From Candidatus Aenigmatarchaeota archaeon (GTDB lineage Archaea > Aenigmatarchaeota > Aenigmatarchaeia > CG10238-14 > SCSR01), in contig JACPAE010000001.1 in NCBI GenBank assembly GCA_016181005.1, positions 90,508-154,507 of the forward strand: 64,000 nucleotides of DNA, given 5' to 3'. This document shows positions 1 through 57,974 of this stretch, one piece after another (positions within the stretch are counted from its first letter, which is position 1; every line of letters begins with the position of its first letter). The notes beneath the pieces were generated by a model that saw only the letters and a list, made by a program, of their open reading frames with translations, did not search any database and had not been told where the DNA came from. The translations under genes and the position numbers were made by a program.

Positions 1-1903
1 GCAGGGATATGAAATAAACTATAGCGCTGTAGAGCAGTATCTTTGCGACATTCAACCTCTTCAGCAAACTCTCATCACCGTTGGTTATCGTGCTTGACGA
101 CACGGCTATCAGCGTGGCAATCTCTACAAGGTAGACTCCTACAATCAGCTGGAATGCGTGGACAGGAAGTATCGAGCCGATGTTGAAGATGGACTGGAAA
201 ATTCCCGAGCCTATGTCGCTGGCAGGACCCAGCGCCGAGCCTAGGCTCCCATAAATGTTCTTTATCGATTCCCCTAAACTGACAAGCAGCCTTGTCATTA
301 TTGCTGCCAGTGTCACGACAACTCCGGCGCTCAGTGGCGCAAGGACAATGGCCTGCGTGTTCATCGTCGACGTCACGTCCTCCATCATGTTCTTCAAATC
401 CTCATTCACCTCCCGCATGTCCTTCAGGTACTTGGAGATTATCACCATGGACTTGGACGCGCTCTGCATCCCCTTCTGCGACGTCTCGACAACAACATTC
501 ATTATCGCCTCTATGAGCGTTGAAGGGTAGTATCTTATCGCGCCGTACTGCTTGTCGAACACCGCGCCCTCGAAAGTCATGCCGAACGTCTTTATGTTGT
601 AGAGTATCTTGTCGAAAAAGTCAGATATCTTCATGTTCTTCGTCTGCTCCTTGGACCTCTTGAGTGCAGTCTCTAGAGGAATCCCCCTCATCATCAGGCT
701 GCCGAGCTGGAACAATGCCTCTGCGAACTCGCCCTCTATATCTGCGATCTCCTGCCTTATCTTCAGCTTCCTTCTCACGGAAAGATAGGAATAGCTTATG
801 ATGCCGGCGAATATCCCAAGAGTCACAAGCATCGAGTAAACCATCAGCTCAAAGCTGAAAATCTCCTTGGCGCCGATTAACTTCGAGATTCCGAAGCCGA
901 TAAGCGGCAGCGACACCAAAACAGGAATTATGTACGGCTTTTCGTAGAACTTGTCCACCGCGAACTGCGGGTGCTTCCTCAAGTCGGGCTGGTGGAAGCT
1001 GTACGGCCTCCTCTCAAGATAGCTCGACATCAGGAAAAACACTATCAGCGGCAGGAAAACGTCGTAGCCGATCACAAGCAGCACCGGCTTTACAATCTCC
1101 GGGAGGAATATGCTTACCACAGGAAAGAACACCAGGCCTATTATCGGCAGGAGTATCCCCAATGCATTCAGAATCGTCACAGGCTCCTTCATCTCCCTTG
1201 CATATCCTTTCATCCTCTCCTTTGTGCCTTCCAGTATCACAGAAACAGCCTCGTCCAAAAACCTTTCGCGCTTTAGCTGCGATTCAGCGCTGGAGTTCTT
1301 TATCAGATACAGCGCTGTGGCGAACTCCTTGTTCTCCCTCTCCCATTTCTTGATGAAGACTTCAAGCGCGTCCTCTATCCTGTCGTACTTTCTGGTGTAG
1401 ACGCTCCACAAAAGCTCGCGCAGGTCCTTGGCCAGCGCCCCCTTGAGGTTCCTTGACGCAAACTTTACCGAATTCTCCAAGTTGGCCGACAGATGCATGG
1501 AGATGCTCATGTAGATTGCTGCAAGAACCATTTCTGAAGACGCATTTATCCTAAAGCTGGTGGCATAACGGATCGGGTACGATGCTAGGAAGTAGAATGT
1601 CATCGACGCTATTGTCAGGGAGAGAATTGTTGTCGAAAGTGAAAACGAGTCCAGCGATATAAGCAATGTCAATGACGCTGCAAAAATCATCAGTGTTGCA
1701 ACAATTGAAAGAGTGATTGCCCCCTTCGGCGTAATCTTCAGGTGGGAGAATTCTATTGCCTCGCTGTATTTTGACTCCAGACCTTTGGGCAGGAATACAG
1801 GCAGGAACTCTGATATTTCGCAAAGCCTTTCGTAAATGGAAAGCTTCCTTGCCAACTGCTCCTCCTGCAGGAACTTTTCATAGTCTCTTGAAATTGCCGG
1901 CAC
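1..1903 (-). CDS. FlaJ/TadC-like polytopic membrane platform protein (type IV pilus/archaellum assembly); 3' end runs off window start
   Basis: Manual minus-strand translation from a GTG at 1903 is open to coordinate 1 (>630 aa) with no stop, and has many TM helices. It is missing from the ORF table because it has no in-window stop. It lies beside the VirB11/FlaI-type ATPase. Confidence 0.55.
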   Translation of the reverse strand, partial: MPAISRDYEKFLQEEQLARKLSIYERLCEISEFLPVFLPKGLESKYSEAIEFSHLKITPKGAITLSIVATLMIFAASLTLLISLDSFSLSTTILSLTIASMTFYFLASYPIRYATSFRINASSEMVLAAIYMSISMHLSANLENSVKFASRNLKGALAKDLRELLWSVYTRKYDRIEDALEVFIKKWERENKEFATALYLIKNSSAESQLKRERFLDEAVSVILEGTKERMKGYAREMKEPVTILNALGILLPIIGLVFFPVVSIFLPEIVKPVLLVIGYDVFLPLIVFFLMSSYLERRPYSFHQPDLRKHPQFAVDKFYEKPYIIPVLVSLPLIGFGISKLIGAKEIFSFELMVYSMLVTLGIFAGIISYSYLSVRRKLKIRQEIADIEGEFAEALFQLGSLMMRGIPLETALKRSKEQTKNMKISDFFDKILYNIKTFGMTFEGAVFDKQYGAIRYYPSTLIEAIMNVVVETSQKGMQSASKSMVIISKYLKDMREVNEDLKNMMEDVTSTMNTQAIVLAPLSAGVVVTLAAIMTRLLVSLGESIKNIYGSLGSALGPASDIGSGIFQSIFNIGSILPVHAFQLIVGVYLVEIATLIAVSSSTITNGDESLLKRLNVAKILLYSAIVYFISL

Positions 1904-1933
1904 AATTAAAGATTGTCTTTATTCAGGCATAAG

Positions 1934-2239
1934 TTAAGGCGTCGTCGGCTTGCTGCAGCCTGAAAAGCTAGTGCCTTGGATCGGCTCCCAGCCAGGAATT
2001 ATTGAACTGCAGAATTTATAGCACTCGTCGTTCTCGAATTGCTTGCCGCATTTTGTCTTTATCTTGTCCCAATTCTCCTGCGTCTGGAAAGTGCAGAACC
2101 GAATCTTGACTGCGATGCACTCGGCCTCGTTCGTGCCCTGGCGCCCTTGTCCGCCTGCATAAAAGAACCAATAGCCGAGCAGCGCTATTACTGCAACTCC
2201 CAAAACAATTGCTACGATGTAATTAACCGCGCCTTTCAT
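1934..2239 (-). CDS. small Cys-rich membrane-anchored protein, candidate class III signal-peptide (type IV) pilin
   Basis: Internal ATG gives MKG|AVNYIVAIVLGVAVIALLGYWFF: a short basic N-terminus, Gly, then a hydrophobic helix. The C-terminal half carries more than 6 Cys. It sits between the ATPase and the platform gene. Confidence 0.35.
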   Translation of the reverse strand: MKGAVNYIVAIVLGVAVIALLGYWFFYAGGQGRQGTNEAECIAVKIRFCTFQTQENWDKIKTKCGKQFENDECYKFCSSIIPGWEPIQGTSFSGCSKPTTP

Positions 2240-2256
2240 AATATCACTTCTGCCAT

Positions 2257-4116
2257 CTATTTGATTCTTCCCTTGAACCAGTTCAGCCACTTGTCGTAAA
2301 TCATCTTGGAATCCATAGCTCCTATTTCCTCCCTTACCTGCTCTGAAATCAAATGGAACATGGAGTTGGACTCGACAGCATACTCGGCCTCAAGGATGTT
2401 TGGGTTGGTTTGGCCGGCCAGTTCAACCATCGTTTCTTTAATCTTCGCCCTCAGCAGGATGTTGTCCCATACTGCATCCCATCGGCCTCTCCACTCCCTC
2501 ACTCTTTTCGCAATCTCGTTCAAGACTTCAGACTCGCCGTCTATCAAAGTGTCTGTCGGCTTTAGCGTGTCCTCCTTTGCCGAATACTCCATCAAATTAA
2601 CAAACCCTCCTTCGTCCATGGGATCGTTCTTCCAGTTTTTCCTTATCTCGGTCAATTCAGTGACCCTTCTGAACCTGTGAAGGCCGTCGGGGGATTTCAG
2701 CTGGTTGCACACTGTGATTAAATCCAGCGCCTTGAAGCTTGTCGGCGGCACGCCTAAATCATGGACAACCCTGTCATAAACGCCGTAAGCTGATTCCCCG
2801 TGAATTGTGCCGGCGACGACATTCGCCAATGCCCCAATTCTCATGGCCTCGAACAATGCAAGGCTTTCCACGCTCCTAACCTCGCCGATTATAAGAACAG
2901 AATCTCCCAATCTCAACGCAGTCCTCAACGCCTCGTCTGCAGGCAACTCAGTTTCCACTTTTGTAATTACAGAGCGGGATTTCATTCTTTCAATGTTGTA
3001 GCCGAGCCTTCTCATGTCAGCGACTGCGATTTCTAAAGTGTCTTCCGAGGAGACTACTCTGAATTTCGGCAGGATGTCGAGCATTAGTGCATTAAGCAGG
3101 GAAGTTTTTCCCGAGCCTCGACCGCCTGCGACAAGCAGCGCCCTTCCGCCGTCGATGACAAAGCTCATCACTCCTGAATACAACGGGTCTATCATTTTGT
3201 GCTTGATGAAGAGCGGAATAGTCCAAGGCCTTTCCCTGTGCCTTCGGAAAGCGAATGCCAGGCCTTCCGGCGACAGCGTCCTTGTAATTGCAGCAACCCT
3301 TGCCTTTCCTCCAGGAACAACCAGCTCTGTGTCAAGCACCGGGTTTGATTCGTCCAGAGGCCTGCCGGAGAAAAGCCTGAATCTTGTCGCCCATGCGTCT
3401 GCGTCCTCCATCGTCGGCATTAAGTTTGTCTCGCACTCCTCATAATCAGAATGCAAAATGAATATCGGCACGGTGCCTATCGGCGAGTTTACAAACACGT
3501 CCTGGATTTTCTCGTCCGATAGCAGAAGCTCAAGAACTCCATAGCCTGCAGTGTATCGCGAAAGTATGTTCGCCAGCTCGTCTATCTCTGCCGAAGAAAG
3601 GTTGACGTTCATGCTCTGCGCGATGTCGCGCACCAAGTCCCTCCCAAGATTCTTGAAGAGCTCGCGCGATTTTTCCGGCTCTACAGTTTCTGCTTCCGTT
3701 GGTCTGTGGGACGCGAGATACCTTCGCGCAGAATCCAGGATCGAATATTTTTCGTCGCTGAGGACAAACTCCTTCGGCGTTATATGATAAAGATAACGCA
3801 CCTTGCCGAGCAGCTTGTAAATTTCCACCTCGGCCCCCTTTATGCTGTACTTTTCAAGCAGCCTTGCGCCCTTCGGTATCGACAGCATGAACCTTGTGAG
3901 CATAAAGTTCGGCTTGACTGTCGGCGAGAATAATTCGCGGTAGATGTCCCTGCTTCCAAGCTGGTAGTTTTGCAGTACCGGCATGGATTTTTTAATCAGA
4001 GCTGTCCCCTCAAGCATGTTCTTTATCGGCACTAGAGCATTGTTCAAATAATGGACGAACGCCATTCTCTGCTCCAGCGGAGCCGTGTTCTCAAGAACCT
4101 TGTTCGCGTTCACCAT
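2257..4116 (-). CDS. FlaI/ArlI / VirB11-family secretion ATPase (type IV pilus/archaellum assembly ATPase, long form)
   Basis: Walker A is AGGRGSGKTSLLNAL, and DSVLIIGEVR is a Walker-B/Asp-box-like motif typical of T2SS/T4P ATPases. The table ORF starts with GTG at 4122; the ATG at 4116 is the likely start. Confidence 0.85.
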   Translation of the reverse strand: MVNANKVLENTAPLEQRMAFVHYLNNALVPIKNMLEGTALIKKSMPVLQNYQLGSRDIYRELFSPTVKPNFMLTRFMLSIPKGARLLEKYSIKGAEVEIYKLLGKVRYLYHITPKEFVLSDEKYSILDSARRYLASHRPTEAETVEPEKSRELFKNLGRDLVRDIAQSMNVNLSSAEIDELANILSRYTAGYGVLELLLSDEKIQDVFVNSPIGTVPIFILHSDYEECETNLMPTMEDADAWATRFRLFSGRPLDESNPVLDTELVVPGGKARVAAITRTLSPEGLAFAFRRHRERPWTIPLFIKHKMIDPLYSGVMSFVIDGGRALLVAGGRGSGKTSLLNALMLDILPKFRVVSSEDTLEIAVADMRRLGYNIERMKSRSVITKVETELPADEALRTALRLGDSVLIIGEVRSVESLALFEAMRIGALANVVAGTIHGESAYGVYDRVVHDLGVPPTSFKALDLITVCNQLKSPDGLHRFRRVTELTEIRKNWKNDPMDEGGFVNLMEYSAKEDTLKPTDTLIDGESEVLNEIAKRVREWRGRWDAVWDNILLRAKIKETMVELAGQTNPNILEAEYAVESNSMFHLISEQVREEIGAMDSKMIYDKWLNWFKGRIK

Positions 4117-10879: not shown

Positions 10880-11743
10880 ATGAGGCCGCTTGCCAAGTTT
10901 CTTGAGAACCAGCTGACGAAGGACGAGCTGGAGATGGTTCCGAAGAGCTATGATGTCATGGGTTCGGAGGGGAAGGGTGTCGCCATTATAGAGATTCCCA
11001 AGAAGCTGGAAGACAAGAAGCATTTGATTGCAGAGGCTGTCATGGACGTGAACAAGAATGTCAAGTCTGTTTTGAATAAAGTTTCTGGCCGCAAGGGGAC
11101 TTTTAGATTGGATGAACTGGAGTTGGTTGCCGGAGATGAGGATACCGAAGTTTTGCACAAGGAATATGGATATATGCTCAAGCTTGACCCGCAGAAGGTA
11201 TTCTTTTCGCCGAGGGAGGCTACCGACAGGGACAGGATTGCATCTTTAGTGAAACCTGGTGAGACTGTATTGGTGTTATTCTCTGGAGTCGCGCCTTATC
11301 CGATAGCTATTGCAAAGAAGTCTGATGCTAAAGTTTATGGTGTGGATATCAATCCGGCTGCGCATGAATACGCCAAGGAGAATATCCGAATCAACAAGCT
11401 GGCGCACAGGATTGTCGTTATTAATGATGACGTGAGGAATGCTGGCAGGATTTTTGATTTCAAGTTTGACAGAATCGTGATGCCAATTGCTGTCGGAGGG
11501 GAGGATTATCTGGATGAGGCGTTTTCAATGGTGAAGGATGGTGGCGTTATTCACTTTTATTCGTTTGGTGATGAAAAGGATTTGTTTTCGAAGGCGGAAG
11601 GTTTTGTCAAGGAAGCTGCAAATAGAAACAACATAAAGTTTGTTGTGGAACAGAAGAATAAGGTATTGCCGTTTGGCATTAGAAGCCATAAGATTTGCTT
11701 GGACATTAAAGCAGGGGTACCCAAGCCTGGTCTAAGGGACTAG
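10880..11743 (+). CDS. trm5: tRNA (guanine37-N1)-methyltransferase Trm5/Taw22-like (Met-10+ family)
   Basis: SAM fold ETVLVLFSGVAPYPIAIAKK...VYGVDINPAA...RIVMP. The last 33 nt overlap the tRNA-Leu 5' end. Confidence 0.75.
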   Translation: MRPLAKFLENQLTKDELEMVPKSYDVMGSEGKGVAIIEIPKKLEDKKHLIAEAVMDVNKNVKSVLNKVSGRKGTFRLDELELVAGDEDTEVLHKEYGYMLKLDPQKVFFSPREATDRDRIASLVKPGETVLVLFSGVAPYPIAIAKKSDAKVYGVDINPAAHEYAKENIRINKLAHRIVVINDDVRNAGRIFDFKFDRIVMPIAVGGEDYLDEAFSMVKDGGVIHFYSFGDEKDLFSKAEGFVKEAANRNNIKFVVEQKNKVLPFGIRSHKICLDIKAGVPKPGLRD

Positions 11744-11796
11744 CTTCAGGAGCTGGCGGCTTAGTGCCTTCGAGAGTTCGAATCTCTCCCCCTGCA
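11711..11796 (+). tRNA. tRNA-Leu (anticodon CAG), class II with long variable arm
   Basis: Hand-folded cloverleaf. Acceptor GCAGGGG/CCCCTGC forms 7 perfect base pairs. D-stem is CCC/GGG. Anticodon stem is CTAGC/GCTGG with loop TTCAGGA. Variable arm is 15 nt. T-arm is GAGAG-TTCGAAT-CTCTC with discriminator A. No encoded CCA. Confidence 0.85.
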
Positions 11797-12007
11797 CTTT
11801 GGATTTAGAGGAATTCTAGAAGATACTATTGTCTAAAGGTTTAGGACTAATTCCATTTGAAATAAGTATGATTATCTATTAAGTATAAATTTAATTATAG
11901 ATGGAAAAACTTTATACTTCTAGATAAAATCTCCTAAATGTTAATTCTGATGTGTTGCTCTTTAGGAACAACTTTAAGCATATAACTTCGTGTGATGATA
12001 TGTTCTT

Positions 12008-12490
12008 TCATTTTATGCCTATATCACCAAAAAATTCCAATAAGTTCAAACACCTGATTCCAAAATTTTGAGCTATTACAGGAATTCTATTTGCTTTTGT
12101 TTTGCTTTCATTTGTAACAATTATGGCGTTCATACAAATACTCAATGAAATTATCCATGGATCGGCCCATGCAGTAAGACCGTTGGTTTGAGTATTCCAA
12201 TAGTCTAGATTGTATTTCGTTTTTACTTTCTGCAAATTACTTACTTGTGCATTATCGACATTTATGAATATTTTTCTATTCTGTTGACACCATACAATCA
12301 ATTTGTTGTTACCATTTTGAATTTCTCTTTGGACCTCAATCGGTGCAATAATTTTATCACTAGCTACAAATTTTTCAATTTGTTTCCAAATAGGTAAAAA
12401 AATTACTTTATTCTTTGGGTACCATCTATCAAGATCAATCAGGGAGCTGGAATCAATACAATATGGAGGAATTAATCTCTTCTGCAACAA
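12008..12490 (-). CDS. DUF4411-family PIN-like putative nuclease (partner of ImmA/IrrE peptidase)
   Basis: 160 aa, 4 nt downstream of the COG2856-type gene. This conserved pair is known from defence islands. Confidence 0.55.
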   Translation of the reverse strand: MLQKRLIPPYCIDSSSLIDLDRWYPKNKVIFLPIWKQIEKFVASDKIIAPIEVQREIQNGNNKLIVWCQQNRKIFINVDNAQVSNLQKVKTKYNLDYWNTQTNGLTAWADPWIISLSICMNAIIVTNESKTKANRIPVIAQNFGIRCLNLLEFFGDIGIK

Positions 12491-12494
12491 GTCA

Positions 12495-13583
12495 TCACCC
12501 TATAAGTTTTTCTGCATATTTTGTTTTGACATTCAGGATTCCTGTAGCTTCAGAAAATGCTATGTCACCTTTCTTATAGGCTCCACTAACTTCTTTAATC
12601 GCTAGATTACCGACACGGTTAAAGAAAACCTTTTCCCATTTTCTACGAGCAAATTCATTTTTTTCCATTTTTTCTTTATAAAAAGTTTCTTTGAACATGT
12701 TGTAAATTCTACCGTCGATTTTTCGAATAAAAAGAAGTCTAAGCATCACGACTTGCTTGCTAACACCGTAGTGCTGAGAAATGTCTGAAATATTACTCCA
12801 ATTAATTTTTTCTAGTCCTTTTACCGCTATTTCTAAATTATTTCTAGGAACAAGAAATTCGGCAGAAAATGAATCACAATAATTCTCAATTGATTGCTTA
12901 TTTTCTTGTTCGATTTCAATAGAACAAATTGCGGATGTTCTTTTAAGCAAATGACAGACTTCATGAAAAAGCGAGAATAACTTTACAGTAGATTTATCAC
13001 TTTCATTTAGAACAATTATTGACATTTTTGAAAATATGCTAAATGCTCTAATATCATCTGCTCTAAAAGGATACTCTATGATTAGTATAGAAAGTTTTTC
13101 TTCTAAAATTTTCTTGTAATAAGGAAGTATCTCATCATATTTGCGAAACTCATGATTATCTATTTTCAAAAGTTTCTTGAATGATTCTACCAATTGCGTG
13201 GCAGTTAAATCTTCTGGAAAAATAGGAATCTGGCTTTGTTTTTCACTCAATTCTGCAATTTTACTAGCTAAATATTGTGCTCTTCTTTCGGCCAAGAATA
13301 TTTCTGGAGTAAGTTTTTTTTCACGGTTTATTCTATAATCTGGTATAGTCTCCAGTTTCGATATTCTCTCTGTAAAAAAGGCTATTAAAGGACGTTGATA
13401 AATATCAGATAGTCTCCTAATTTCTGTCATGGTTAAAAAATCTCGTCCAGATTCTATATTTTCAAGTTTTTCTTGGGAACGACCAAGCTTTTTTGCGATA
13501 TCTTTTAGTGTATATCCAGAACTTTCGCGAAGATAGAGTAAACTAGCAATCGGGACTTTTATTGTCTTATTTTTCTTCGTCAT
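12495..13583 (-). CDS. XRE-type HTH + ImmA/IrrE-family Zn-metallopeptidase (COG2856)
   Basis: N-terminal HTH (YTLKDIAKKLGRSQEKLENIESG) and HExxH in LFHEVCHLL. Confidence 0.8.
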   Translation of the reverse strand: MTKKNKTIKVPIASLLYLRESSGYTLKDIAKKLGRSQEKLENIESGRDFLTMTEIRRLSDIYQRPLIAFFTERISKLETIPDYRINREKKLTPEIFLAERRAQYLASKIAELSEKQSQIPIFPEDLTATQLVESFKKLLKIDNHEFRKYDEILPYYKKILEEKLSILIIEYPFRADDIRAFSIFSKMSIIVLNESDKSTVKLFSLFHEVCHLLKRTSAICSIEIEQENKQSIENYCDSFSAEFLVPRNNLEIAVKGLEKINWSNISDISQHYGVSKQVVMLRLLFIRKIDGRIYNMFKETFYKEKMEKNEFARRKWEKVFFNRVGNLAIKEVSGAYKKGDIAFSEATGILNVKTKYAEKLIG

Positions 13584-13884: not shown

Positions 13885-14955
13885 ATGTCTAAATCACTGA
13901 CTGTGTTGGATTTCTTTTGCGGTGCGGGTGGTTTTTCTGAAGGGTTCAAACAGTTAGGTTTTGATGTCGTTTATGGTGCAGATAATTGGAATCCTGCTAT
14001 CCAAACATTCAAAGCCAACAATTCCGATGCAGAAGTAGTCAAAGTTGATGTTCTAGAACTCAGTGCAACAGATGTACCTAAAGCTGATGTAATTATTGGA
14101 GGACCACCTTGTACAGAGTTCTCAGGATCGAATAGAGGAGGAAGTGGAAATGTAAAAGAAGGTATGGAACTTGTAAAAAGATTTTTGTATTATGTGCACG
14201 AGTTGAAACCTAGATGGTGGATTATGGAGAATGTACCTAGACTGTTGCAGACCCTGCCACCAAAATTTAGATTGAAAGATTTGGGTATTGATAAAGAAGG
14301 TATTTTCGAAATACCTAAAATGCAGGTATTCAATGCTGCGGATTTCGGCGCACCGCAAAAAAGAACAAGATTGTTATCAGGTAAATACCCGAACCCTCTA
14401 CAGACGCATTCTGAAAATCCTGTAGTTACATTGAACGGACAGAAACTATCGCATTGGTTCACAATGAGAAAAGTAATAGAATCATTTCCTAACCCGTTGA
14501 ACGAACCACGAAAGGGAAAGCACGTCAAAGATCCAAATTATAACTTCAATGTTACTGAGATGAAATTAGAGGATCATTTCGGCGACCATTCCATTATGAA
14601 AGATGAAGAGGCCGAAAGAAACAAGAGACAGAAAACGGAACATCCGTATTATGGGAAGATGAAATTTCCCGACGACTTGGACAGACCATCGAGAACTGTG
14701 ATGGCGACTCAGTTCAATGCATCACGAGAGACCATGGTCATCGCGATGAGTAATAACGGTCGCAAGATTATTTATAGGAAACCCACGATAAGAGAATGTG
14801 CATCATTGCAATGCTATCCTATAAACTACAAATTCATCGGCACAAACCCCACCACAAAGTACAAGCTGGTGGGAAATTCCGTTCCCGTGAAGTTGTCTAT
14901 GGCTGTCGCGAAAGCCATACTGAGAGAAGCTGGAATGAGAACTCGGAAAAACTAA
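13885..14955 (+). CDS. dcm: DNA (cytosine-5)-methyltransferase
   Basis: Motif I FCGAGGFSEGF, motif IV GGPPCTEFS, ENV, and the C-terminal target-recognition region. Confidence 0.9.
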   Translation: MSKSLTVLDFFCGAGGFSEGFKQLGFDVVYGADNWNPAIQTFKANNSDAEVVKVDVLELSATDVPKADVIIGGPPCTEFSGSNRGGSGNVKEGMELVKRFLYYVHELKPRWWIMENVPRLLQTLPPKFRLKDLGIDKEGIFEIPKMQVFNAADFGAPQKRTRLLSGKYPNPLQTHSENPVVTLNGQKLSHWFTMRKVIESFPNPLNEPRKGKHVKDPNYNFNVTEMKLEDHFGDHSIMKDEEAERNKRQKTEHPYYGKMKFPDDLDRPSRTVMATQFNASRETMVIAMSNNGRKIIYRKPTIRECASLQCYPINYKFIGTNPTTKYKLVGNSVPVKLSMAVAKAILREAGMRTRKN

Positions 14956-15740
14956 GCTCTTAGTGACATCCTTGCCTGTTTTTCAGAGGCGTTTGTGTAT
15001 CGTCTAAGCAGATAATATACGACGGACATGTATACGCTCGCACGCCTTGATTGATTCAAATTCAGACTGTGAAAACTGTAGAACCATGCATCGCCTCTAT
15101 TGGCCTCTTCGCATGCAAAAGCCAAGACAAGGGAAGCAACCATAATCCTCAACGGGACATCTTTCAAGCTCCTTATCTCGCCGTTCTTCATGTAAGTGTC
15201 GCCATCCAACCTGATGTTACCATATCCGTCCTTCGGGAAATGTTTCTCGACGAGCTGTTTGGTGAGTTCTACTATGTCGTCTGAAGAAATTATTCCTTTG
15301 CTCCTATAGACGCCATCAATGTTACTCTGCAATGTCGTCGCGTCTGGAATTTTCATAGCTATGCTCTCTAGGACGTCGTCTATGAAACCGTCCATGATTT
15401 TGGACCTGGTGGGGAAGTCTTCTCTCATCCATTTGACAAGAGTCTCGGTTATTTTGAAATGTGGCAGAGCATCAGTCGAACATTGCTCACGACTTAACCC
15501 TGGTGGTATTATCCTCCCTATCCAATCACACACGTGAGATATTTTGATGGTACTATGAATTGGACAGAGGCCGAACATGGACCTTGTAGTACGCTCACAT
15601 TCCGGATGTCTGCATTTTATGACGATGCCTGAGTGGTTCACTGGTGTCGGGTTCTCCTTCGGCAAACCACCCCCATTGGAAAATTCGACGATGTATCCTC
15701 CTTCTTCAAGGACTATACTGTCGTACATCTTTAGTGACAT
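14952..15740 (-). CDS. hypothetical Cys-cluster protein; candidate cognate restriction endonuclease (positional inference only)
   Basis: 262 aa, convergent with dcm (4-nt overlap) and translationally overlapping vsr upstream. Carries CRHPECERTTRSMFGLCPIHS. No family recognised. Confidence 0.3.
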   Translation of the reverse strand: MSLKMYDSIVLEEGGYIVEFSNGGGLPKENPTPVNHSGIVIKCRHPECERTTRSMFGLCPIHSTIKISHVCDWIGRIIPPGLSREQCSTDALPHFKITETLVKWMREDFPTRSKIMDGFIDDVLESIAMKIPDATTLQSNIDGVYRSKGIISSDDIVELTKQLVEKHFPKDGYGNIRLDGDTYMKNGEIRSLKDVPLRIMVASLVLAFACEEANRGDAWFYSFHSLNLNQSRRASVYMSVVYYLLRRYTNASEKQARMSLRA

Positions 15741-16155
15741 ATCTCTTAATCCTACCTAAAACCTTATCTGGATTACTCCTTATATCATGCTCCCAAAATT
15801 CAAATACTTTCCATCCTAGATTATCAAGTTCTTTTTTATTGATTTTATCTCGTTCGATGTTACGTTCGAACTTCCTTTTCCAGAATTCTGTATTTGTTTT
15901 AGGTATAGGCAGATTGCATTTTTTACACTTATGCCAAAAACAACCATTAACAAATACGGCAATCTTTTTCTTAGGGAAAATAAAATCCGGATTTCCTGGC
16001 AATGTGTTTCTTTCAATCTTTTTCTTCAATAACATGGATAGAATTTTTTCAGGTTTTGTACCACGGGGTTTATTGGATTTCATTGACTTGGAGACAGTTT
16101 TTGAGTTTGATTTAGGTGATTTTCCTACAGGTTGAGTTGTATACGCACGTTTCAT
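15706..16155 (-). CDS. vsr: very-short-patch-repair endonuclease
   Basis: GNPDFIFPKKKIAVFVNGCFWHKC...NTEFWKRKFERNIERDK...GWKVFEFWEHD is the canonical Vsr/DUF559 signature. Confidence 0.85.
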   Translation of the reverse strand: MKRAYTTQPVGKSPKSNSKTVSKSMKSNKPRGTKPEKILSMLLKKKIERNTLPGNPDFIFPKKKIAVFVNGCFWHKCKKCNLPIPKTNTEFWKRKFERNIERDKINKKELDNLGWKVFEFWEHDIRSNPDKVLGRIKRYVTKDVRQYSP

Positions 16156-16372
16156 GAAGAATATGTTGTAACCGAAAAGCTTATTTATTTCAAATACAAC
16201 TGTTATTCAATACAATACAGCCGACGCATGTTCGGTTTGTCCTGTAAAGGGGCACTTGAATGGAGTAGTATTGAAATCTATTCCTGATAATTTACTGGAT
16301 ATGTGACGTTTGTTGAGTATGGTTTGCGTATAGCGAACCTTTAAAAGGTCGTAAAGACCGGAGGAAAATAAA

Positions 16373-17407
16373 ATGCAAAATTTGAAAACGAAAGAATCTT
16401 CAGGTTGGGTTCGATTCAAGGCTTTAGAAGCCAAACAACCTGGTGGTACCCTTTACACTATAGTCATGAAAGGGAAAGATTTGGTTTCCAAATCTCGAGT
16501 TCTTACTAGAGACAAAGACGATGAAGGTGTGCAGAGAATCTTGAGTAAGGCGAGATGCAGAAGGATAGCTAGATTTTATGCTATGGATGACACACTCTTG
16601 CCTGGAAATATCGTAAGCACAATAGATAATAACGATGTCCGCATAGAAGATGGACATGTTCAAATAAGTAAAGACTTCATAAACGAAGTAATAGATGGTC
16701 AGCATAGATTGTGGGGATTTGATCCTGAGTATAATGAACAAGGGACGGATTTCGATGTGATACTCACATTCTTAATCGGTGCTGACGTGCAAACTAAAGC
16801 AAAACTCTTCTACAAAATCAATAAAGAACAAAAGAAAATAAATCCAAGTCTAGCATATGATTTGCTAATCGTAATGGGTAGCGATGAACTGAAAGCAGAG
16901 ATTGCTAAAGTTGTACAGGATTTGAACGAAGACAAAGAATCTGCATTCTACGGAACAATAAAAATCAGAGAAACCAGCGAAGGTACGATTTCGATGGCTA
17001 CAATGGCCCATAAAATCGAACAGTTTCTTAAGGGACCCATGGGAAAACGTTTCCTCGATAGAGAAGAACTAAACAAACAAGTTCTCTATGACGTATTAAG
17101 AAACTATTTCACAGCAGTGAAAAACTTGTTACCAGACGCATGGTCCGATTCGAATTGCATACTAGTCAAATCATTGGGTTGTGGCGCTCTGATAGAACTA
17201 CTTCCAGATGTGATATCTGAACACACGTCTAGAAATGGCCGTACAGTACCGACAGTAAAACAGTTTGTAGAGATAATGAAACCCGTATCATCATTCGACT
17301 TCTATGATCAAGAAGTAACTAACTTGGGTGGTGAAAAGGGTCAGAGATATCTAGCTAATCTATTAGTGGAAGAAATTGGAATCGGGGGATTCGAGGTGGG
17401 AAAATAA
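16373..17407 (+). CDS. DGQHR-domain protein (DndB-like, ParB-nuclease superfamily)
   Basis: Literal DGQHR motif (EVIDGQHRLWGF) in a DndB-like N-terminal context (GVQRIL...RIARFY). 344 aa. Confidence 0.8.
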   Translation: MQNLKTKESSGWVRFKALEAKQPGGTLYTIVMKGKDLVSKSRVLTRDKDDEGVQRILSKARCRRIARFYAMDDTLLPGNIVSTIDNNDVRIEDGHVQISKDFINEVIDGQHRLWGFDPEYNEQGTDFDVILTFLIGADVQTKAKLFYKINKEQKKINPSLAYDLLIVMGSDELKAEIAKVVQDLNEDKESAFYGTIKIRETSEGTISMATMAHKIEQFLKGPMGKRFLDREELNKQVLYDVLRNYFTAVKNLLPDAWSDSNCILVKSLGCGALIELLPDVISEHTSRNGRTVPTVKQFVEIMKPVSSFDFYDQEVTNLGGEKGQRYLANLLVEEIGIGGFEVGK

Positions 17408-17433
17408 CCCACCCTTAATTTTAAGTGATGTGA

Positions 17434-18306
17434 ATGGACGAAGAAACGTTAAGAAAACTCCAAAGTGAATATACAAACTCTAAAGGGTCAGAGAAACAAA
17501 GATTGTGGAGAGAAGAAAATCTACGAAAAGAATTTGTTGAAAATTTTCCCATAGAAGAAATACCTAAGATGAAACTTGAAGATTATGTTGTGGGATTACC
17601 TAAAGAAGATGGCACAAGAAATATTCATAGTTTTTGCAATTGGATTGAAAATGTTACGCAGGAATCTGGACAGATATGGATTGGTGGTTCTGGCGCATAT
17701 GTTATTTTCTTTGAAGTTGAGCGTGATGGTGAGATGATAAACTCATTTATGATTAGAGAAGGTAACGAAAGCACCCCAATAAGAGAAGATGTAGCTGGAG
17801 AAGAATTTGAAAAAGTCAAAAGAATGTTGTATCGAATGTTGAAATTCGGAGAAGATGATAACATAGACGCAGTAAAATCAATTTATAACGAATTTAAGAT
17901 GCACAGTCATGTTAAAGCTAAGATTTTGCATTTGTATTTCCCTGAAATGTTTTTGAACGTTTTTTCAAGTTATTGGGTGAATAGTTATTTGAATTCTTTG
18001 GATTTACAAATAGAATCCGATGCGTTCGATGGTAGAATGTCTTTGATGAAGTTTAAACAAAATGATTCTATAATGTCTAAATGGACTACACAACAATTTG
18101 CAGATTTTCTATTGTACACGTTCCCACCTAACATTAAAGCTATTAAAGAGTTGGATAAAAAGAAAAAGGAATTAATCATCAGGATGAAAGAACTAGAATC
18201 GATGTTTATCAATGGTGAAAAGGGTTTAGAAGATGACGCACTTGAATATAATAAAAATCTACAGAAGAAAATAGACGAAATAAATAAACAACTAGAAGAA
18301 CTTTAA
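17434..18306 (+). CDS. hypothetical protein with C-terminal coiled coil, operonic partner of DGQHR protein
   Basis: 290 aa, 26 nt downstream on the same strand with the same AT-rich composition. No recognisable motif. Confidence 0.45.
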   Translation: MDEETLRKLQSEYTNSKGSEKQRLWREENLRKEFVENFPIEEIPKMKLEDYVVGLPKEDGTRNIHSFCNWIENVTQESGQIWIGGSGAYVIFFEVERDGEMINSFMIREGNESTPIREDVAGEEFEKVKRMLYRMLKFGEDDNIDAVKSIYNEFKMHSHVKAKILHLYFPEMFLNVFSSYWVNSYLNSLDLQIESDAFDGRMSLMKFKQNDSIMSKWTTQQFADFLLYTFPPNIKAIKELDKKKKELIIRMKELESMFINGEKGLEDDALEYNKNLQKKIDEINKQLEEL

Positions 18307-18356
18307 TTCAGAGATAACATACATTATCAATGAGCTAACGATACTTTCTTTACCCG

Positions 18357-18393
18357 CTCTAACACCATTTAAACCCAAAAAGCTGAATATTCT
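18357..18393 (+). promoter_or_regulatory. promoter-like motif copy 1 (aacaccatttaaa + downstream cc.aaa..c.gaatatt)
   Basis: Shares a 13/13 identical core plus a similar downstream half with the copy at 19068-19106. Confidence 0.3.
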
Positions 18394-18522
18394 CGTTATA
18401 GAACGAAAAGGACAAGATACTTGATGATCCAGCCGTACATAAAGAACTGCTAAGGAATTTCTATTAATTGCCGGGTAGTCCTAGGCTTATTTCTTTAAAA
18501 ATCCAACCAATATTCTATATAA

Positions 18523-18756
18523 GTGCTGGTAGGCATGGGAAAAAGAAAGCTTGGCCTCATACCCCCGATGTATGTAGAGCCAAACAGAAAAATGAAAAAC
18601 TTTATGAAAGTGGCCAAATATCCGAAAACCATTAGAGAGTACAAAGACCTTATGAAAAGTTTGAAAGCCAGTCCAAGAAACTTCAGTAAAAAGCTTCGAG
18701 AGTATACTTGGAAGGGTAAAACTGTGGCCGATATTGAGAAGGAACTAGCTGGATAA
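18523..18756 (+). CDS. small basic hypothetical protein
   Basis: 77-aa Lys-rich ORF. Confidence 0.3.
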   Translation: MLVGMGKRKLGLIPPMYVEPNRKMKNFMKVAKYPKTIREYKDLMKSLKASPRNFSKKLREYTWKGKTVADIEKELAG

Positions 18757-18774: not shown

Positions 18775-19035
18775 ATGAAATTGAAGATGAAACTCCCAAA
18801 AGAATTGGAGGTAAGGGTGCTTACGGCTTTATACAAGTACTATACAAAGGACGTGACCTTTGAGAGGGCCGCAGAGGACGAAAACATACCAATAGTATTA
18901 TTTGTAAACTATGTCAACGATAATGACCTGCCCATAGTACACACAGATAAAGACATGAGCGTTGGAATACAAAGGGTGCTGGTCCTTATGAAGGAAAGGG
19001 GTATGAAGGTTGACAAGTTAAGACTTTCTGCCTAA
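18775..19035 (+). CDS. small hypothetical protein
   Basis: 86-aa ORF 18 nt after the previous one. Confidence 0.3.
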   Translation: MKLKMKLPKELEVRVLTALYKYYTKDVTFERAAEDENIPIVLFVNYVNDNDLPIVHTDKDMSVGIQRVLVLMKERGMKVDKLRLSA

Positions 19036-19067: not shown

Positions 19068-19106
19068 CATAACACCATTTAAAAACCACAAATCAGAATA
19101 TTGATG
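19068..19106 (+). promoter_or_regulatory. promoter-like motif copy 2; TATA-like tttaaaa about 30 nt upstream of S2P ATG (leaderless)
   Basis: The motif ends 3 nt before the ATG at 19109. Confidence 0.35.
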
Positions 19107-19108
19107 TT

Positions 19109-20266
19109 ATGGTATCCTTCGAGATCGTCTCGCTTGTCGCATTCGCCACGGTCATAGGATTGTGGCTGTTGTCTGACAGGAAAAACAAGGAGATGACGTT
19201 CAAGTACGGCTTTATTATCAGGAGATGGACGAAGGGCTTGGAGCTTATCGACAAGGTGGTTTCCAGCCATCCAAGACTAATTACAATTGTCGGCAACATA
19301 GGGATCGGTATAGGTGTGTTGGCAGGACTGGGGGGTCTGGCCGTCCTGATATATCTCACAATTAACCTGCAGCAGGCGTTCCAGCTAGTTCTTCCAACAG
19401 CAGGCGGCTACCAGATACCTGGCCCTGTAATCTCGATACCTTTCTGGTACTGGCTGACAGCGATTTTCATCATCGTCGTCACGCATGAATCAATGCACGC
19501 AGTCTTCGCCAGACTGGAGAACGTCAAGGTGAAGAATTACGGAATCTTAATGCTTCTTCTTCTGCCGATAGGCGCGTTTGTCGACCCCGACGAGAAAAGA
19601 ATCAAGAAGCTAGGCACTATAAAGAAATTAAGAATATTTGCCGCCGGCAGCCTTGCCAACTTCATCACAGCAATAATCGGAGTCATTGTCCTGATATCAT
19701 CGGTGTTTCTCTTCACGTCCGCAACAAAGAACATGGGCGTCGCGATAGAGTCTGTGGAGCCCGGCTCGCCTGCGGACAAGGCAGGTTTGGAAGGGACTAT
19801 AACGGAGATCAATGCCATCAAAATCAACAACAGCCTTGACTTCGCCAAAGCCTTGAACAGCACGAAGGCCGGGGATACCCTGGACATAACAACAGACAGA
19901 GGCGTCTACAAGCTCGCGCTGGAGATCCATCCGAAAAATGAAAATAGGACCTACATGGGCGTAAGCATCAGGAACGCGTTCTCCTTCGACGTCTTCGGAC
20001 TGCAGGGAATAGTTTCCAGTGTGTTTTACAGCGTCTTCTTCACCGTAATCTCCTTCCTCAACTGGCTGATAGTGATCAGCGCTGGAGTGGGAACAGTTAA
20101 CATGCTCCCGATGAAGCCGTTGGACGGCGGCCTGTTCTTCGAGGAGATATTCACAAAAGTGTTTGGCGACAACGGAAAGAAACTGATTCTTGTCTCAAGC
20201 TACCTGATACTGGGATTGCTATTGCTGAACCTCTTCGGCCTTCCGCTGCTAAAGTCTATTCTTTGA
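19109..20266 (+). CDS. site-2 protease (M50 family intramembrane metalloprotease) with PDZ domain
   Basis: HESMHAVFA (HExxH) in a TM helix, PDZ-like middle region, NMLPMKPLDGG (LDG motif). Confidence 0.85.
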   Translation: MVSFEIVSLVAFATVIGLWLLSDRKNKEMTFKYGFIIRRWTKGLELIDKVVSSHPRLITIVGNIGIGIGVLAGLGGLAVLIYLTINLQQAFQLVLPTAGGYQIPGPVISIPFWYWLTAIFIIVVTHESMHAVFARLENVKVKNYGILMLLLLPIGAFVDPDEKRIKKLGTIKKLRIFAAGSLANFITAIIGVIVLISSVFLFTSATKNMGVAIESVEPGSPADKAGLEGTITEINAIKINNSLDFAKALNSTKAGDTLDITTDRGVYKLALEIHPKNENRTYMGVSIRNAFSFDVFGLQGIVSSVFYSVFFTVISFLNWLIVISAGVGTVNMLPMKPLDGGLFFEEIFTKVFGDNGKKLILVSSYLILGLLLLNLFGLPLLKSIL

Positions 20267-54841: not shown

Positions 54842-55281
54842 TATTCGTAATTGCTGGGGAACCAAGTTTTGAAGAATTGATAAAAGAAATCGATAGAATA
54901 GTACCGGAATTAAAAGAACCTGTAATAGCGCAGATAGGAAACGGTAAATATATCCCAAAAAATTGCAAATGGTTCAGAGTTCATTTTCCTCTATATCCAT
55001 ATTATAAGAAAGCAGATATTATTGTGTCGCATCATGGCGCAGGCACTATATTTGAGGTGCTGAAATTTCACAAAAAGCTTATTTGTGTGGAAAATGCTTT
55101 CAAAGGACGCAATCCGGATCTCATGAGTGAGTTAAGTAAAGGAGGGTATTTGATTGATTGTAAAAAAATTAGTGACTTGAAGAAATGTATTAGTTTGGCT
55201 AGAAAAACAAAGATAAAAAAATACAAGTCCCCTAAATGTGAAATTGGCGAAACAATTATAAAATTTTTGAACCGGGATTAA
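54838..55281 (+). CDS. Alg13-like catalytic subunit (GT28 C-terminal domain)
   Basis: SHHGAGTIFE glycosyltransferase-28 C-domain. Overlaps the Alg14-like stop. Confidence 0.65.
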   Translation: MIFVIAGEPSFEELIKEIDRIVPELKEPVIAQIGNGKYIPKNCKWFRVHFPLYPYYKKADIIVSHHGAGTIFEVLKFHKKLICVENAFKGRNPDLMSELSKGGYLIDCKKISDLKKCISLARKTKIKKYKSPKCEIGETIIKFLNRD

Positions 55282-57974
55282 GTTAATCGTGTTGGCGACA
55301 AGTACCGAGACTTTACACCATTAAACTCAAACAACAGTTCGCCGTGACATTGCAGGCATTTTCCTGCTAACGGCACTGCCTTGTACAGTGTGTCGCAATT
55401 TAGGCAAGAAAACGAGTCGTACGCTGGTAGGGGCTGCTGCAGGGTTTCTCCGTTTGTCGGCTTTATCCTGTTGCCCCTGAACAATTCTTTCAGTAACATC
55501 TGCCTTCCCAGTCCTGTCAATTCGTTTTTACTAATCCCGATGACTTCAAAGACCCTTTCCAAAGGAGGCAATATCTGATTCTCAATATAGTATCTTGAAT
55601 CGACTGCTATCTTATTTTCCTTCACGTAATCAGGATCCTCCGCGCGTTCGGACAGCAGCTGCATTCCTTTGACTATAACAAACCCCACGCGGTCACCAAC
55701 GCCTGGCGACGAACCGTTTCTCTTCTTCAATTTCTTAACAAGCTCGACGTGAGGTTGTATCCCTTTATATGAACTTATTGCCTTGGATATGCTTTTCGTA
55801 ATCACTAGGTCTTCAATGGGAACCTCGTTTCTTTCAAGCCTTTGCGTGATATCCTTAACGTACCTAAATGCCTTTTTTGTATCCTGCTCTTTCAACAAAA
55901 TATTTAATACTTCAAACAACGTCTTGGTTGTAGCGTCGCACCAGTCGCGTCTGACTGTCTCAATGCCTTTCATCACTATTTCTTCTTTCCATTCACCGTC
56001 AATTTTTTCATAGCTTAAACCTGCATATCTTTTTTTCGAAAGAATTAAAAGCGACTTGTAAACACTTTCAATTTTTAACTGGACTATGCCGTCGAGTTCT
56101 GTATTCACCAATTTTTCGACTTCATGACCGATTCTAACCGCCTCGTCTAAATCTCTCGTATTAGTCTTGACCATTATTGAATCTGTGTCCCCGTAGACTA
56201 CCTGGTAGCTGGTGCCTTTTTCCACTATCTCCTTAGTCCTGTTTATCAGAAACCTACCGCATCCAGTGATCGTATTCGCGATTTCCATGATGTACAATCT
56301 CGCCCTTAGGTATCCTGTGTATCCGTAGAATGCGTTCGTCATTATTTTAAGGGCAAGCTGTTTTGCCTCCAGGATTCTCTTAATCTCCCCACTAGATTTC
56401 CTTACACTGTCTCTAACCTTGTCCCTTTCAAATATCAACCGTTTTAAAATTGCAGGTATGACACCTTCCCTAACTTTTGGCGAGACGAACTTTGTCTCAT
56501 AGGGTGTCGTTATGGTGTCCGCTCCATTGTTTTCATCCTTGATAAGCGTTGTTGGACAGATATTGTAAGCTATGAAAATAGACGGGTACATCGACTTGAA
56601 ATCAAGATAAACCACAGATTCTGTATGCAGCCCAAGCGTCGGTTCTAGCACCAGCGCGCCTTTTAGTGTTTGTATCTCGGTTTCTTCGGAGTGCGTTCCA
56701 TCGACTGGTTTGTCTGGCAGTATGAAGCTATGAAGGTTGAACTCTCGCAGCAGAAGGTTCTCAACCCTTTGCGCCTCCCCACCGTCAAGGCAGTCCTGTA
56801 GTAGAAGTCCAGACACCTTACTCAACTCAAGAAACTTGTCTATAAACGACTTTTCTAAGAGAAGTCTTAGTGGGAGCACGGAATCTTTTTCCGCATAGTC
56901 TATCAGCTTTGACAGCTGTTCTTCCGTTCCGTGCCAGTATGAATATATTTCGCTGTGCGGGATGTTTATTTTTTCATCGTTCAGAAGTGCGCGGGACACG
57001 TCACCCAATCCCAAACGCTTCAATCTTAGATTTCCTTTTTGTATTGACTCTTTAATCAAGGCATACGTGTCTACAATCACCCTGCCTGTAACAGTGTTCC
57101 TGAATTGTTGTCCGAATTTTCTTGAAGAAGCCGGTTTTTGATTGCACCTTCCTATTGTTTGATGGAGCTTGTTTTCTCTAAGCCTATCGAGGATGTATGG
57201 AAAATCGAAGCCGTTTATATTATATCCTACCAACAGGTCTGGGTCGTAGGCTTCGATCACTCTTAAGAATTCTTGGAGCATTTCCTTCTCTGAAGAGAAG
57301 ACTTTTACGTTGCTTCTTACTCTAGTCCTTTTTGCGACCAGGGACAGGCTCTTGTGGTTATTGTAGTCGGGATTAAATGTAAGGCTTATTATTCCGATTT
57401 CATCTTTTCTAGAATCTGGTATGACATCTTTAGATATCGTCTCTATGTCTATGGAGAGATACTTGAAACTGCCATTCTCAGGGTTCTCAACTTCGGCAAA
57501 ATCCTCGACGTCCATCGAAATGTCGCACTTTACCGTGTTAGTCTTGGACGGCCTGCCTTTTACGTTAAGCCATTTAAAGCCGGATATTCCCATGTCTGCC
57601 ATAAACCTGTACTTGAAAAGTATGTCAGACTCGAACACCGATTGTACAAAACTCTCCTTCTTTAGCGATTCCCTTACTTCCGGTACCTTTGACGGATCTG
57701 TCAAGGTTACTTTCAGCATCTTCGTTTTTTCCTTTTGGTAATTAATCGACTTGAATCTCTCAACTTCTTCAATGTTTTTTATTATTTGGAAGTTTTTTTT
57801 CAGAAATTCCACCACCTTGTCCTTCTGTTTCGGCAGTACGTAGAAATAGGGATAGAACCCCCTATAAAAACCGCAGACAGCTTTACCTTCCTTGGTTTTG
57901 CCGAAAAGTCTGACTATTGGAGCATTGTCAAGAACTATATAATCGCAGTCTAGAAGCTGAAATTGAATTTCCAT
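55278..57974 (-). CDS. polB: family-B DNA polymerase with C-terminal Cys4 zinc-finger extension
   Basis: Exo I YLSIDIET, KxxxNSxYG-like KIMTNAFYGYTGY, YGDTDS, and KKRYAG. An extra ~70 aa after YYIENQILPPLERVF contains CLNCDT...(12 aa)...CLQCH. Confidence 0.95.
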   Translation of the reverse strand: MEIQFQLLDCDYIVLDNAPIVRLFGKTKEGKAVCGFYRGFYPYFYVLPKQKDKVVEFLKKNFQIIKNIEEVERFKSINYQKEKTKMLKVTLTDPSKVPEVRESLKKESFVQSVFESDILFKYRFMADMGISGFKWLNVKGRPSKTNTVKCDISMDVEDFAEVENPENGSFKYLSIDIETISKDVIPDSRKDEIGIISLTFNPDYNNHKSLSLVAKRTRVRSNVKVFSSEKEMLQEFLRVIEAYDPDLLVGYNINGFDFPYILDRLRENKLHQTIGRCNQKPASSRKFGQQFRNTVTGRVIVDTYALIKESIQKGNLRLKRLGLGDVSRALLNDEKINIPHSEIYSYWHGTEEQLSKLIDYAEKDSVLPLRLLLEKSFIDKFLELSKVSGLLLQDCLDGGEAQRVENLLLREFNLHSFILPDKPVDGTHSEETEIQTLKGALVLEPTLGLHTESVVYLDFKSMYPSIFIAYNICPTTLIKDENNGADTITTPYETKFVSPKVREGVIPAILKRLIFERDKVRDSVRKSSGEIKRILEAKQLALKIMTNAFYGYTGYLRARLYIMEIANTITGCGRFLINRTKEIVEKGTSYQVVYGDTDSIMVKTNTRDLDEAVRIGHEVEKLVNTELDGIVQLKIESVYKSLLILSKKRYAGLSYEKIDGEWKEEIVMKGIETVRRDWCDATTKTLFEVLNILLKEQDTKKAFRYVKDITQRLERNEVPIEDLVITKSISKAISSYKGIQPHVELVKKLKKRNGSSPGVGDRVGFVIVKGMQLLSERAEDPDYVKENKIAVDSRYYIENQILPPLERVFEVIGISKNELTGLGRQMLLKELFRGNRIKPTNGETLQQPLPAYDSFSCLNCDTLYKAVPLAGKCLQCHGELLFEFNGVKSRYLSPTRLT

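Follow-up and report, generated by a model that had tools for sequence, protein, structure and literature searches.

We analysed a stretch of 64,000 nucleotides from Candidatus Aenigmatarchaeota archaeon (contig JACPAE010000001.1 of assembly GCA_016181005.1, positions 90,508 to 154,507; hereafter the window), in which two co-oriented genes on the forward strand occupy positions 16373–18306. The upstream gene encodes a DGQHR-domain protein of 344 aa (protein 1; 16373–17407), and the downstream gene encodes a protein of 290 aa (protein 2; 17434–18306). Both open reading frames (ORFs) and the 26-nt gap between them were found exactly as in the initial annotation of this DNA, which had proposed the pair as an undescribed two-gene defence module. 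Each ORF is preceded by a Shine–Dalgarno-like sequence, which for protein 1 includes a GGAGG (16360–16364) located 9 nt 5′ of the first ATG.

Features of the two proteins

Protein 1 consists of an N-terminal NTP-binding domain with the ParB/Srx fold (residues ~12–170), as found in the DGQHR superfamily, and an all-helical C-terminal domain (~171–340). It carries the QR (54–55), DGQHR (108–112; nt 16694–16708) and FxxxN (146–150) motifs that were described as hallmarks of the DGQHR domain (PMC4619093), and the sequence surrounding the DGQHR motif reads EVIDGQHRLWGF. Across 41 homologues, residues Q54–R55, D108–G109–Q110–(H111)–R112 and F146…N150 are invariant or nearly so. The literal DGQHR motif that had been noted is thus present, and searches with hidden Markov models (HMMs) confirmed the DndB-like character, protein 1 exceeding the cut-offs of both the generic DGQHR model TIGR03187 (136.6 bits; cut-off 58.85) and Pfam DndB PF14072 (43.3 bits; cut-off 29.1). 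However, it remained far below the cut-offs of the more specific models TIGR04172 (DGQHR_dnd_1; 97.5 bits vs 450) and NF041060 (DpdB equivalog; 81.5 bits vs 300), and scored 77.8 bits with the PADLOC model for DpdB. Pfam revealed neither a GmrSD_N or GmrSD_C match nor a DUF1524 nuclease, and a sequence-profile search of the PDB returned no relative.

The genes that accompany DndB and DpdB proper were likewise not seen. A PADLOC scan covered the 69 ORFs of the window, and among the best 25 of its 90 matching families no dnd, dpd or ssp component ranked above the weak DpdB match of protein 1 itself (weaker ones are possible). Within that same scope, neither dndCDE, dpdA/dpdC nor ssp genes were seen near the pair in the window, and the same holds for nine related loci, none of which places the pair inside a larger dnd or dpd cluster. 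The absence of these systems in the initial annotation therefore stands. Protein 1 belongs to the DGQHR superfamily, but neither its scores nor its gene linkage qualify it as DndB or DpdB proper, and its partner is a restriction-type head instead of a modification enzyme.

Protein 2 had been described as belonging to no recognisable family, which turned out to be incorrect. Although nothing in Pfam or NCBIfam exceeded the cut-offs, residues 5–245 matched positions 13–234 (of 383) of the PADLOC model PDLC04021 for PD-T4-1 (E=2.7e-31, 107 bits), and an exhaustive phmmer search yielded 528 cluster representatives that contain its ~235-residue head, usually at the N-terminus. This head domain (residues 1–232; 17434–18129 on the forward strand) is common to PD-T4-1, to head–HNH fusions and to McrB-type AAA+ proteins. 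There is no Pfam model for it and no solved structure was matched: the PDB sequence-profile search was empty for protein 2 and Foldseek against the PDB gave nothing significant, its weak OGG1/EndoIII matches (E of at least 0.78, probability of at most 0.16) not being evidence. Protein 2 has kept the family-wide motifs F34, Y51, G54, F67–C68, E72, K163, Y168 and P170, and its clade reads FCNW vs FCYW in the family. The closest fused relatives are P0074 and P0078, both McrB-type, at 31–35% identity.

The remaining residues 233–290 (18130–18306, forward strand) form a charged, coiled-coil-like tail. In an AlphaFold2 model of protein 2 (predicted local distance difference test score, pLDDT, of 88), this tail is a hairpin spanning 234–289 with helices at 234–259 and 266–289, in line with the coiled-coil end that had been noted. 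It occupies the position where relatives carry a nuclease or motor. Among 111 head relatives, the C-terminal remainder corresponded to NOV_C/DUF3883 in 60, HNH in 11, HNH_2 in 8 and McrB-type AAA_5 in 6, and single relatives carry additional MrcB_N, AspBHI_N or EVE reader domains. On annotated Salmonella and E. coli plasmids the head is found on a “DUF3883 domain-containing protein”, which is a genuine PD-T4-1, and head homologues on Bacillus plasmids are annotated as AAA_5 ATPases. A longer coiled-coil-like tail is present in P0071, a fragment from the protein-2 clade, and the helical tail is a shared derived feature of this clade.

PD-T4-1 itself is a single-gene anti-T-even system of E. coli (Vassallo et al. 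2022, PMC9519451). Its N-terminal ~230 residues are homologous to residues 5–245 of protein 2. However, the genuine PD-T4-1 protein WP_000889012.1 scores 679 bits with the full model and a further 473 bits with the C-terminal model PDLC04022, whereas the 107 bits of protein 2 cover the head only, with no match to PDLC04022 and, in Pfam, no NOV_C/DUF3883 PD-(D/E)XK nuclease. Moreover, protein 2 lies beside a DGQHR gene in a conserved two-gene operon. Judged by its sequence, protein 2 is thus a PD-T4-1/McrB-type restriction head without a nuclease, and not a PD-T4-1 system, as the nuclease half is missing and it is not a single-gene system.

Conservation of the gene pair

The clade of protein 1 was sampled in ten independent contexts, including the window, at 45–100% identity to protein 1. 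The two closest homologues of protein 1, in loci L012 (63% identity) and L017 (57%), both have a protein-2 homologue directly downstream. In L012 it starts 29 nt downstream and is 51% identical to protein 2 over the 150 aa that precede the contig end, and in L017 (P0072) it follows after a gap of ~50 nt and is 40% identical over 162 aa. Seen from the other side, all three members of the protein-2 clade with readable context have a DGQHR gene upstream. Gene order, strand and the short gap have been kept at identities of 57–63% for protein 1 and 40–51% for protein 2, with third codon positions saturated, which indicates purifying selection on the ORF as well as on the arrangement. The DGQHR/head pair is thus a genuine operon, confined to one small subclade and located within a defence island.

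The DGQHR gene of L017, from a Joint Genome Institute assembly, contains a frameshift at ~1095–1130, and the head ORF of this locus breaks off 46 nt short of the end of the contig. The DGQHR gene is intact in P0004, an ENA contig of the same lineage. Both irregularities are probably assembly or sequencing artefacts, although the L017 copy may instead be decaying. Further instances of the pair were not encountered: a word-indexed search with protein 2 retrieved only itself, a metagenome scan retrieved L017 again and nothing else, and viral scans with the alignments of both proteins, together with phage records, gave no match.

The downstream partner of the DGQHR gene varies across the remainder of the clade, although the next gene is co-directional in all ten contexts. 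In L013 (51% identity; 1062–3824), the DGQHR gene precedes, in the same direction, a Type II restriction endonuclease (REase) gene (DUF6996/DUF6997; PADLOC REase_II, E=4e-39), accompanied by a convergent N6/N4 methyltransferase (MTase) gene; this contig stems from the same sample series as the metagenome-assembled genome of the window. The position upstream of the REase is the usual place of a C (controller) protein. In L085 (47%; 965–3255), a GmrSD_N/DUF262 gene follows 39 nt downstream. Its product has a DGQQR motif, so that two different ParB-like NTPase genes stand in tandem here, and an HATPase_c_4 + winged helix-turn-helix regulator is found upstream. A small membrane ORF and an integrase lie downstream in L016 (48%), and an FTR1 gene without any obvious defence neighbour in L008 (48%). 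The downstream gene is an unrelated ORF of no known family in L007 (50%), and unrelated unknown ORFs inside defence islands follow the DGQHR gene in L010 (46%) and L011 (45%). No head was detected in these last three loci by tblastn and HMM searches.

Two ideas about these varying partners were rejected. A single conserved partner for the whole clade was not supported by BLASTP, in which the downstream genes of L007, L010 and L011 showed no similarity to each other or to protein 2. A common docking tail was not supported either, since the unrelated downstream partners show no coiled-coil-like character in their C-terminal 60 residues.

Leader and intergenic elements of the operon

Upstream of protein 1, the three pair-bearing lineages share a conserved leader (16215–16372, forward strand; core 16219–16266), which is probably a 5′ untranslated region (5′UTR). 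Over 160 nt and all alignment columns, the leaders are 0.47–0.53 identical, as compared to 0.33 (maximum 0.42) for shuffled sequences, 0.34–0.42 for third codon positions of the adjacent gene and 0.37–0.43 against pair-less lineages. The core comprises three hairpins on the forward strand, of which the first is a palindrome of the form A-GCCGA-N7-TCGG-TT (16219–16237), followed by hairpins at 16239–16253 and 16254–16266. RNAalifold predicted 20 base pairs, 5 of them with compensatory changes, a support that is thin because it draws on three sequences only. The GCCGA-N7-TCGGT element (16220–16236) occurs once in the window vs 0.03 times expected, and is located at –153 from the ATG in the window, –148 in L012 and –151 in L017. 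Its arms are invariant, the 7-nt spacer is variable, and the element is absent at DGQHR loci without protein 2. No Rfam match was obtained in the region 15900–18700. The palindrome could be either a protein operator or part of a structured 5′UTR.

The first conserved hairpin is preceded at a distance of ~30 nt by a BRE (B recognition element)/TATA-like block (GAAAAGCTTATTTATT; 16174–16189, forward strand), whose aligned counterparts are AAAGGTTATAAG in L012 and AAAGGTTTATAAAG in L017. This block is a candidate archaeal promoter and may drive the operon. A sigma-70 promoter scan did not exceed the shuffled expectation, the sigma-70 model being unsuited to an archaeon, and a small leader ORF was dismissed after the 19-codon ORF of the window was found to be interrupted in L012.

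A second type of element lies at the gene junction. A terminator-like scan identified a GGTGGG-N7-CCCACC hairpin (17395–17413, forward strand) that spans the stop codon of protein 1 and is followed by a T-rich tract. Stable hairpins at or just after the DGQHR stop codon and 5′ of the ribosome-binding site of the head gene are also present in L012 (~1280–1312) and L017 (~1266–1290; followed by T8), with unrelated sequences. Such structure without sequence conservation suggests attenuation within the operon, and the junction hairpin may act as an attenuating or stabilising element. The flanks of the three lineages differ: in L012 and L017 the upstream gene is on the forward strand and Vsr, which precedes the pair in the window, is not upstream. 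The mobile unit therefore appears to consist of the leader, the DGQHR gene and the head gene.

The operator-like palindrome, with its invariant arms and free spacer, also brings in a regulatory explanation. Protein 1 might be a DndB-type, NTP-modulated DNA-binding regulator of adjacent defence cargo (protein 2 and/or the divergent Vsr–REase operon), with protein 2 being interchangeable cargo and not a subunit. There is precedent in DndB, the founding DGQHR protein, which was shown experimentally to act as an autorepressor and to bind its own promoter at TACG-N10-CGTA palindromes (PMC4507180) and which has been described as ATP-dependent (bioRxiv 2025.10.10.680097). The DGQHR gene is as often linked to Type II restriction–modification (R-M) systems and other varying downstream genes as to protein 2, which makes a DndB-like regulator a serious rival. 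The varying co-directional gene that follows it in 10 of 10 contexts (protein 2 in three; elsewhere a Type II REase plus MTase, GmrSD_N or unknowns), its C-protein position in L013, and its divergent orientation from homologous Vsr–REase–Dcm cassettes in the window and L016 would all fit such a role. However, L016 and L013 lack the palindrome, and these are exactly the loci where the linkage to R-M systems is seen. Moreover, it is located ~150 nt 5′ of the start codon and, if the BRE/TATA-like block is the promoter, downstream of it, so that an RNA leader fits at least equally well. Protein 2, lacking an enzymatic domain, would also be an odd stand-alone cargo, DpdB illustrates that DGQHR-type proteins can be catalytic partners, and protein 1 is far below the DndB-specific model. 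We regard a regulatory role of protein 1, the main rival of the split module discussed below, as rather unlikely, yet worth taking seriously.

A possible split defence module

We tentatively favour an interpretation in which the pair is a split sensor and NTP switch, constituting a two-component module of defence islands, and hold it with somewhat less than even confidence. The promoter, structured leader, DGQHR gene, junction hairpin and head gene would then form one operon and a small mobile cassette of defence islands. Protein 2 would dimerise or dock, probably via its helical tail, recognise an invader-associated cue (most likely nucleic acid) and pass this cue to protein 1. The output of protein 1 would be either an NTP-dependent, ParB-like closing on DNA or the nicking of DNA; NTP-controlled nicking of DNA by ParB/Srx proteins is cited in PMC12839542. 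The interaction between both proteins, the cue, the DNA-directed output and the role against viruses or plasmids are all proposed by us on this reasoning, and a defence function would follow from the genomic context.

Several observations speak for such a split module. The leader and junction hairpin accompany the pair in lineages whose flanking genes differ, and in the window the pair shares a tRNA-flanked, low-GC island with two Rosmer-like genes and a Type II R-M/Vsr cassette (see below). In its relatives, the head is usually N-terminal to a nuclease or McrB-type motor. Finally, locus L020 (6001–7157) illustrates that the head can be encoded apart from its effector: downstream of the gene for a 237-aa head protein (P0185), and on the same strand, a 118-aa HNH protein is encoded by a gene of its own, and this arrangement is a natural split version of the head–HNH fusions. 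The L020 element bears an integrase and also encodes a Shedu-like SduA_C protein.

Split as proposed, the pair would be the counterpart of the single-chain GmrSD, SspE and BrxU proteins and of the partner-stimulated DpdA–DpdB. DUF262 relatives act as NTPase switches of fused nucleases. In the Type IV enzymes GmrSD, SspE and BrxU, a DUF262 ParB-like NTPase is fused to a DUF1524 His-Me nuclease, whereas protein 1 lacks DUF1524, has not conserved an EHxxP-type motif as known from SspE (PMC10164549), and would receive recognition in trans from protein 2. Both DNA and the partner protein DpdA stimulate the ATPase DpdB, and the DpdA–DpdB pair is one of the closest analogies to the proposed module. 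The kinship with McrBC comes from P0074 and P0078, which consist of the head, with or without EVE, and an AAA_5 McrB-type GTPase, and which share an insert specific to the protein-2 clade. Nevertheless, protein 2 itself lacks AAA_5, and no AAA+ GTPase or McrC-like nuclease was found in or near the pair (for McrC, among the best 25 of 90 PADLOC families). L020 resembles the pair in that P0185 provides the head in trans to a separate small effector gene on the same strand, but the partner there is a canonical HNH nuclease instead of a DGQHR NTPase, and P0185 has no helical tail. No description of a DGQHR and head pairing was found in the searchable literature or in PADLOC v2. The pair, which is neither McrBC nor GmrSD, is thus a new combination of known kinds of parts, and a rare one.

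A number of findings weigh against the split module. Neither protein has a recognised nuclease, and the C-terminal domain of protein 1 has no conserved His-Me/EHxxP nuclease motif, E283 being conserved there unlike the His and Pro that come after it. The head family is basic (median isoelectric point, pI, of 8.7; approximately eight conserved K/R positions), whereas protein 2 has an acidic head (pI 4.9) that lacks two of these positions (the equivalents of K88 and K200), which weakens the case for DNA binding by protein 2. The terminator-like intergenic hairpin suggests that expression of both genes is partly uncoupled. Pairing is limited to 3 of the 10 clade contexts, these being the only three instances, two of them on contigs under 2 kb. 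The expectation that the partner would be kept beside DGQHR homologues held for L012 and L017 but failed elsewhere, since the head gene is absent from the seven clade members at ≤51% identity and no head domain was present within 6 kb of any of 63 distant DGQHR loci in GTDB representative genomes. Conversely, a head-plus-tail protein occurs alone, in a metabolic context (P0230 in L018). Of the undescribed defence module that had been proposed initially, the conserved operon in an island is therefore retained, whereas the partner does belong to a family and the genes downstream of the DGQHR gene vary.

Some of these findings might alternatively be read as signs that the two genes are independent neighbours within the island. 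Protein 2 would then be a degenerate, effector-less PD-T4-1/McrB-type relic, or a dominant-negative or decoy head, and protein 1 would act alone. Its lack of an effector, its acidity and lost basic residues, and FCNW in place of FCYW would agree with a relic, as would the many protein-1 homologues without protein 2, L008 with its lack of an obvious defence neighbour, and the frameshift in the L017 assembly. On the other hand, the ORF of protein 2 is intact and gene order has been kept at 40–51% identity with saturated synonymous sites, the helical tail is shared and derived in the clade (cf. P0071), and the L017 frameshift is absent from the ENA copy P0004. A freshly broken fusion gene was also rejected: in tblastn searches with 14 relatives (seven of 555–850 aa, several of them McrB-type) only the head region was matched, and no nuclease or AAA+ remnant, and hence no remnant of an effector, was found in the window. 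We consider independent neighbours improbable.

A broader version of the split module combines it with the varying partners of the clade. Here, the DGQHR/ParB-fold NTPase clade would serve as a portable first-gene chassis with interchangeable defence partners (a restriction head, a Type II REase, a GmrSD-like protein or unknowns). The subclade with the pair would be a restriction-like system without a canonical nuclease, in which a detached head directs an NTP-gated ParB/Srx domain to clamp or nick the DNA of invaders by itself and in which the structured leader controls the operon. We offer this more encompassing proposal as a speculation, and a fairly improbable one.

Genomic context of the pair

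As had been noted, the pair lies in a tRNA-adjacent, AT-rich island. A tRNA-Leu(CAG) gene (11711–11797) is followed by ~7 kb of low-GC DNA that ends before an M50 protease gene at 19109, the GC content being 0.31–0.42 across 12–19 kb vs 0.46–0.50 in the flanks. The flanking genes mark the window as archaeal and encode TYW2/Trm5, the ribosomal proteins S3Ae and S15/S13, RadA, histone and STT3. An attachment-type repeat of the tRNA gene was searched for at the far border of the island and none was found.

The R-M/Vsr and ImmA/DUF4411 neighbours of the initial annotation were also recovered. Directly after the tRNA-Leu gene, the reverse strand encodes a DUF4411 protein (12008–12490) and a helix-turn-helix (HTH)–ImmA/IrrE protein (12495–13583), the latter matching Rosmer RmrA models (PADLOC, best E=3e-16) and the DUF4411 protein beside it matching no PADLOC model. 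These two genes are probably a Rosmer-type, toxin/antitoxin-like defence pair. Next come a Dcm C5-methylase gene (13885–14955, forward strand), an ORF of 262 aa (14952–15740, reverse strand) and a Vsr gene (15706–16155, reverse strand), after which the DGQHR/head pair follows on the forward strand. The 262-aa ORF belongs to no family and has no match in Pfam or PADLOC; it is the probable cognate REase of the Dcm/Vsr cassette.

This cassette (13885–16155) is located upstream of the DGQHR gene in the window and, in the same arrangement, adjoins the clade member of L016, where it spans 1654–3945. Between both loci, all orientations are the same, and identities amount to 61% for Dcm, 44% for the 262-aa ORF, 50% for Vsr and 48% for the DGQHR protein. 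Such repetition of a four-gene arrangement could mean that protein 1, alone or together with protein 2, serves the Type II Dcm R-M/Vsr cassette as an accessory, for example by modulating restriction or repair at methylated sites, with Dcm–REase–Vsr–DGQHR being the unit. The DGQHR gene of L013 adjoins a different Type II R-M system, bringing the contexts linked to Type II R-M cassettes to 3 of 10, and ParB-like or COG1479 domains have been described as often linked to R-M systems (Makarova et al., PMC3632139). However, L012 and L017 have the pair and its leader with no Vsr upstream, and 7 of the 10 clade contexts are without an adjacent R-M system. The GC content within the island is uneven as well (0.45 for the 262-aa ORF, 0.39 for protein 1 and 0.32 for protein 2), which suggests that the island is of mosaic origin. 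An accessory role in the R-M cassette thus appears very unlikely to us.

A segment of ~700 bp at the right border of the island contains two small ORFs (18535–18756, 73 aa; 18775–19035, 86 aa) and is flanked by an exact direct repeat of 14 nt (TAACACCATTTAAA; 18360–18373 and 19070–19083). Either a duplication of TATA-like promoter elements or scars of an insertion could account for these repeats. Further away, a long low-GC region at ~27–54 kb of the window corresponds to an ordinary glycosylation/polysaccharide cluster (glycosyltransferases, PMT_2, Polysacc_synt, Asn synthase, C-methyltransferase). The PADLOC scan of the window also returned a strong “homing endonuclease” match (E=5e-90) and two “mad2” matches; a family-B DNA polymerase gene (55278–57971, reverse strand) is the suspected source of the former.

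Implications for the two protein families

The pair is rare, occurring in three lineages among billions of proteins, probably with DPANN archaea or environmental organisms as hosts, and its general importance is uncertain. Defence annotation that relies on HMMs only is likely to label protein 2 as “PD-T4-1”, a label that would be incorrect in the absence of the nuclease half. If both proteins work together, the PD-T4-1/McrB-type head would prove to be an independent module, able to couple with a ParB-like NTPase that is not a nuclease. The poorly understood head of PD-T4-1 would then also become experimentally tractable by means of protein 2, because this protein consists of little else. Under the same premise, the roles of DGQHR proteins would extend further than the dnd and dpd modification systems.

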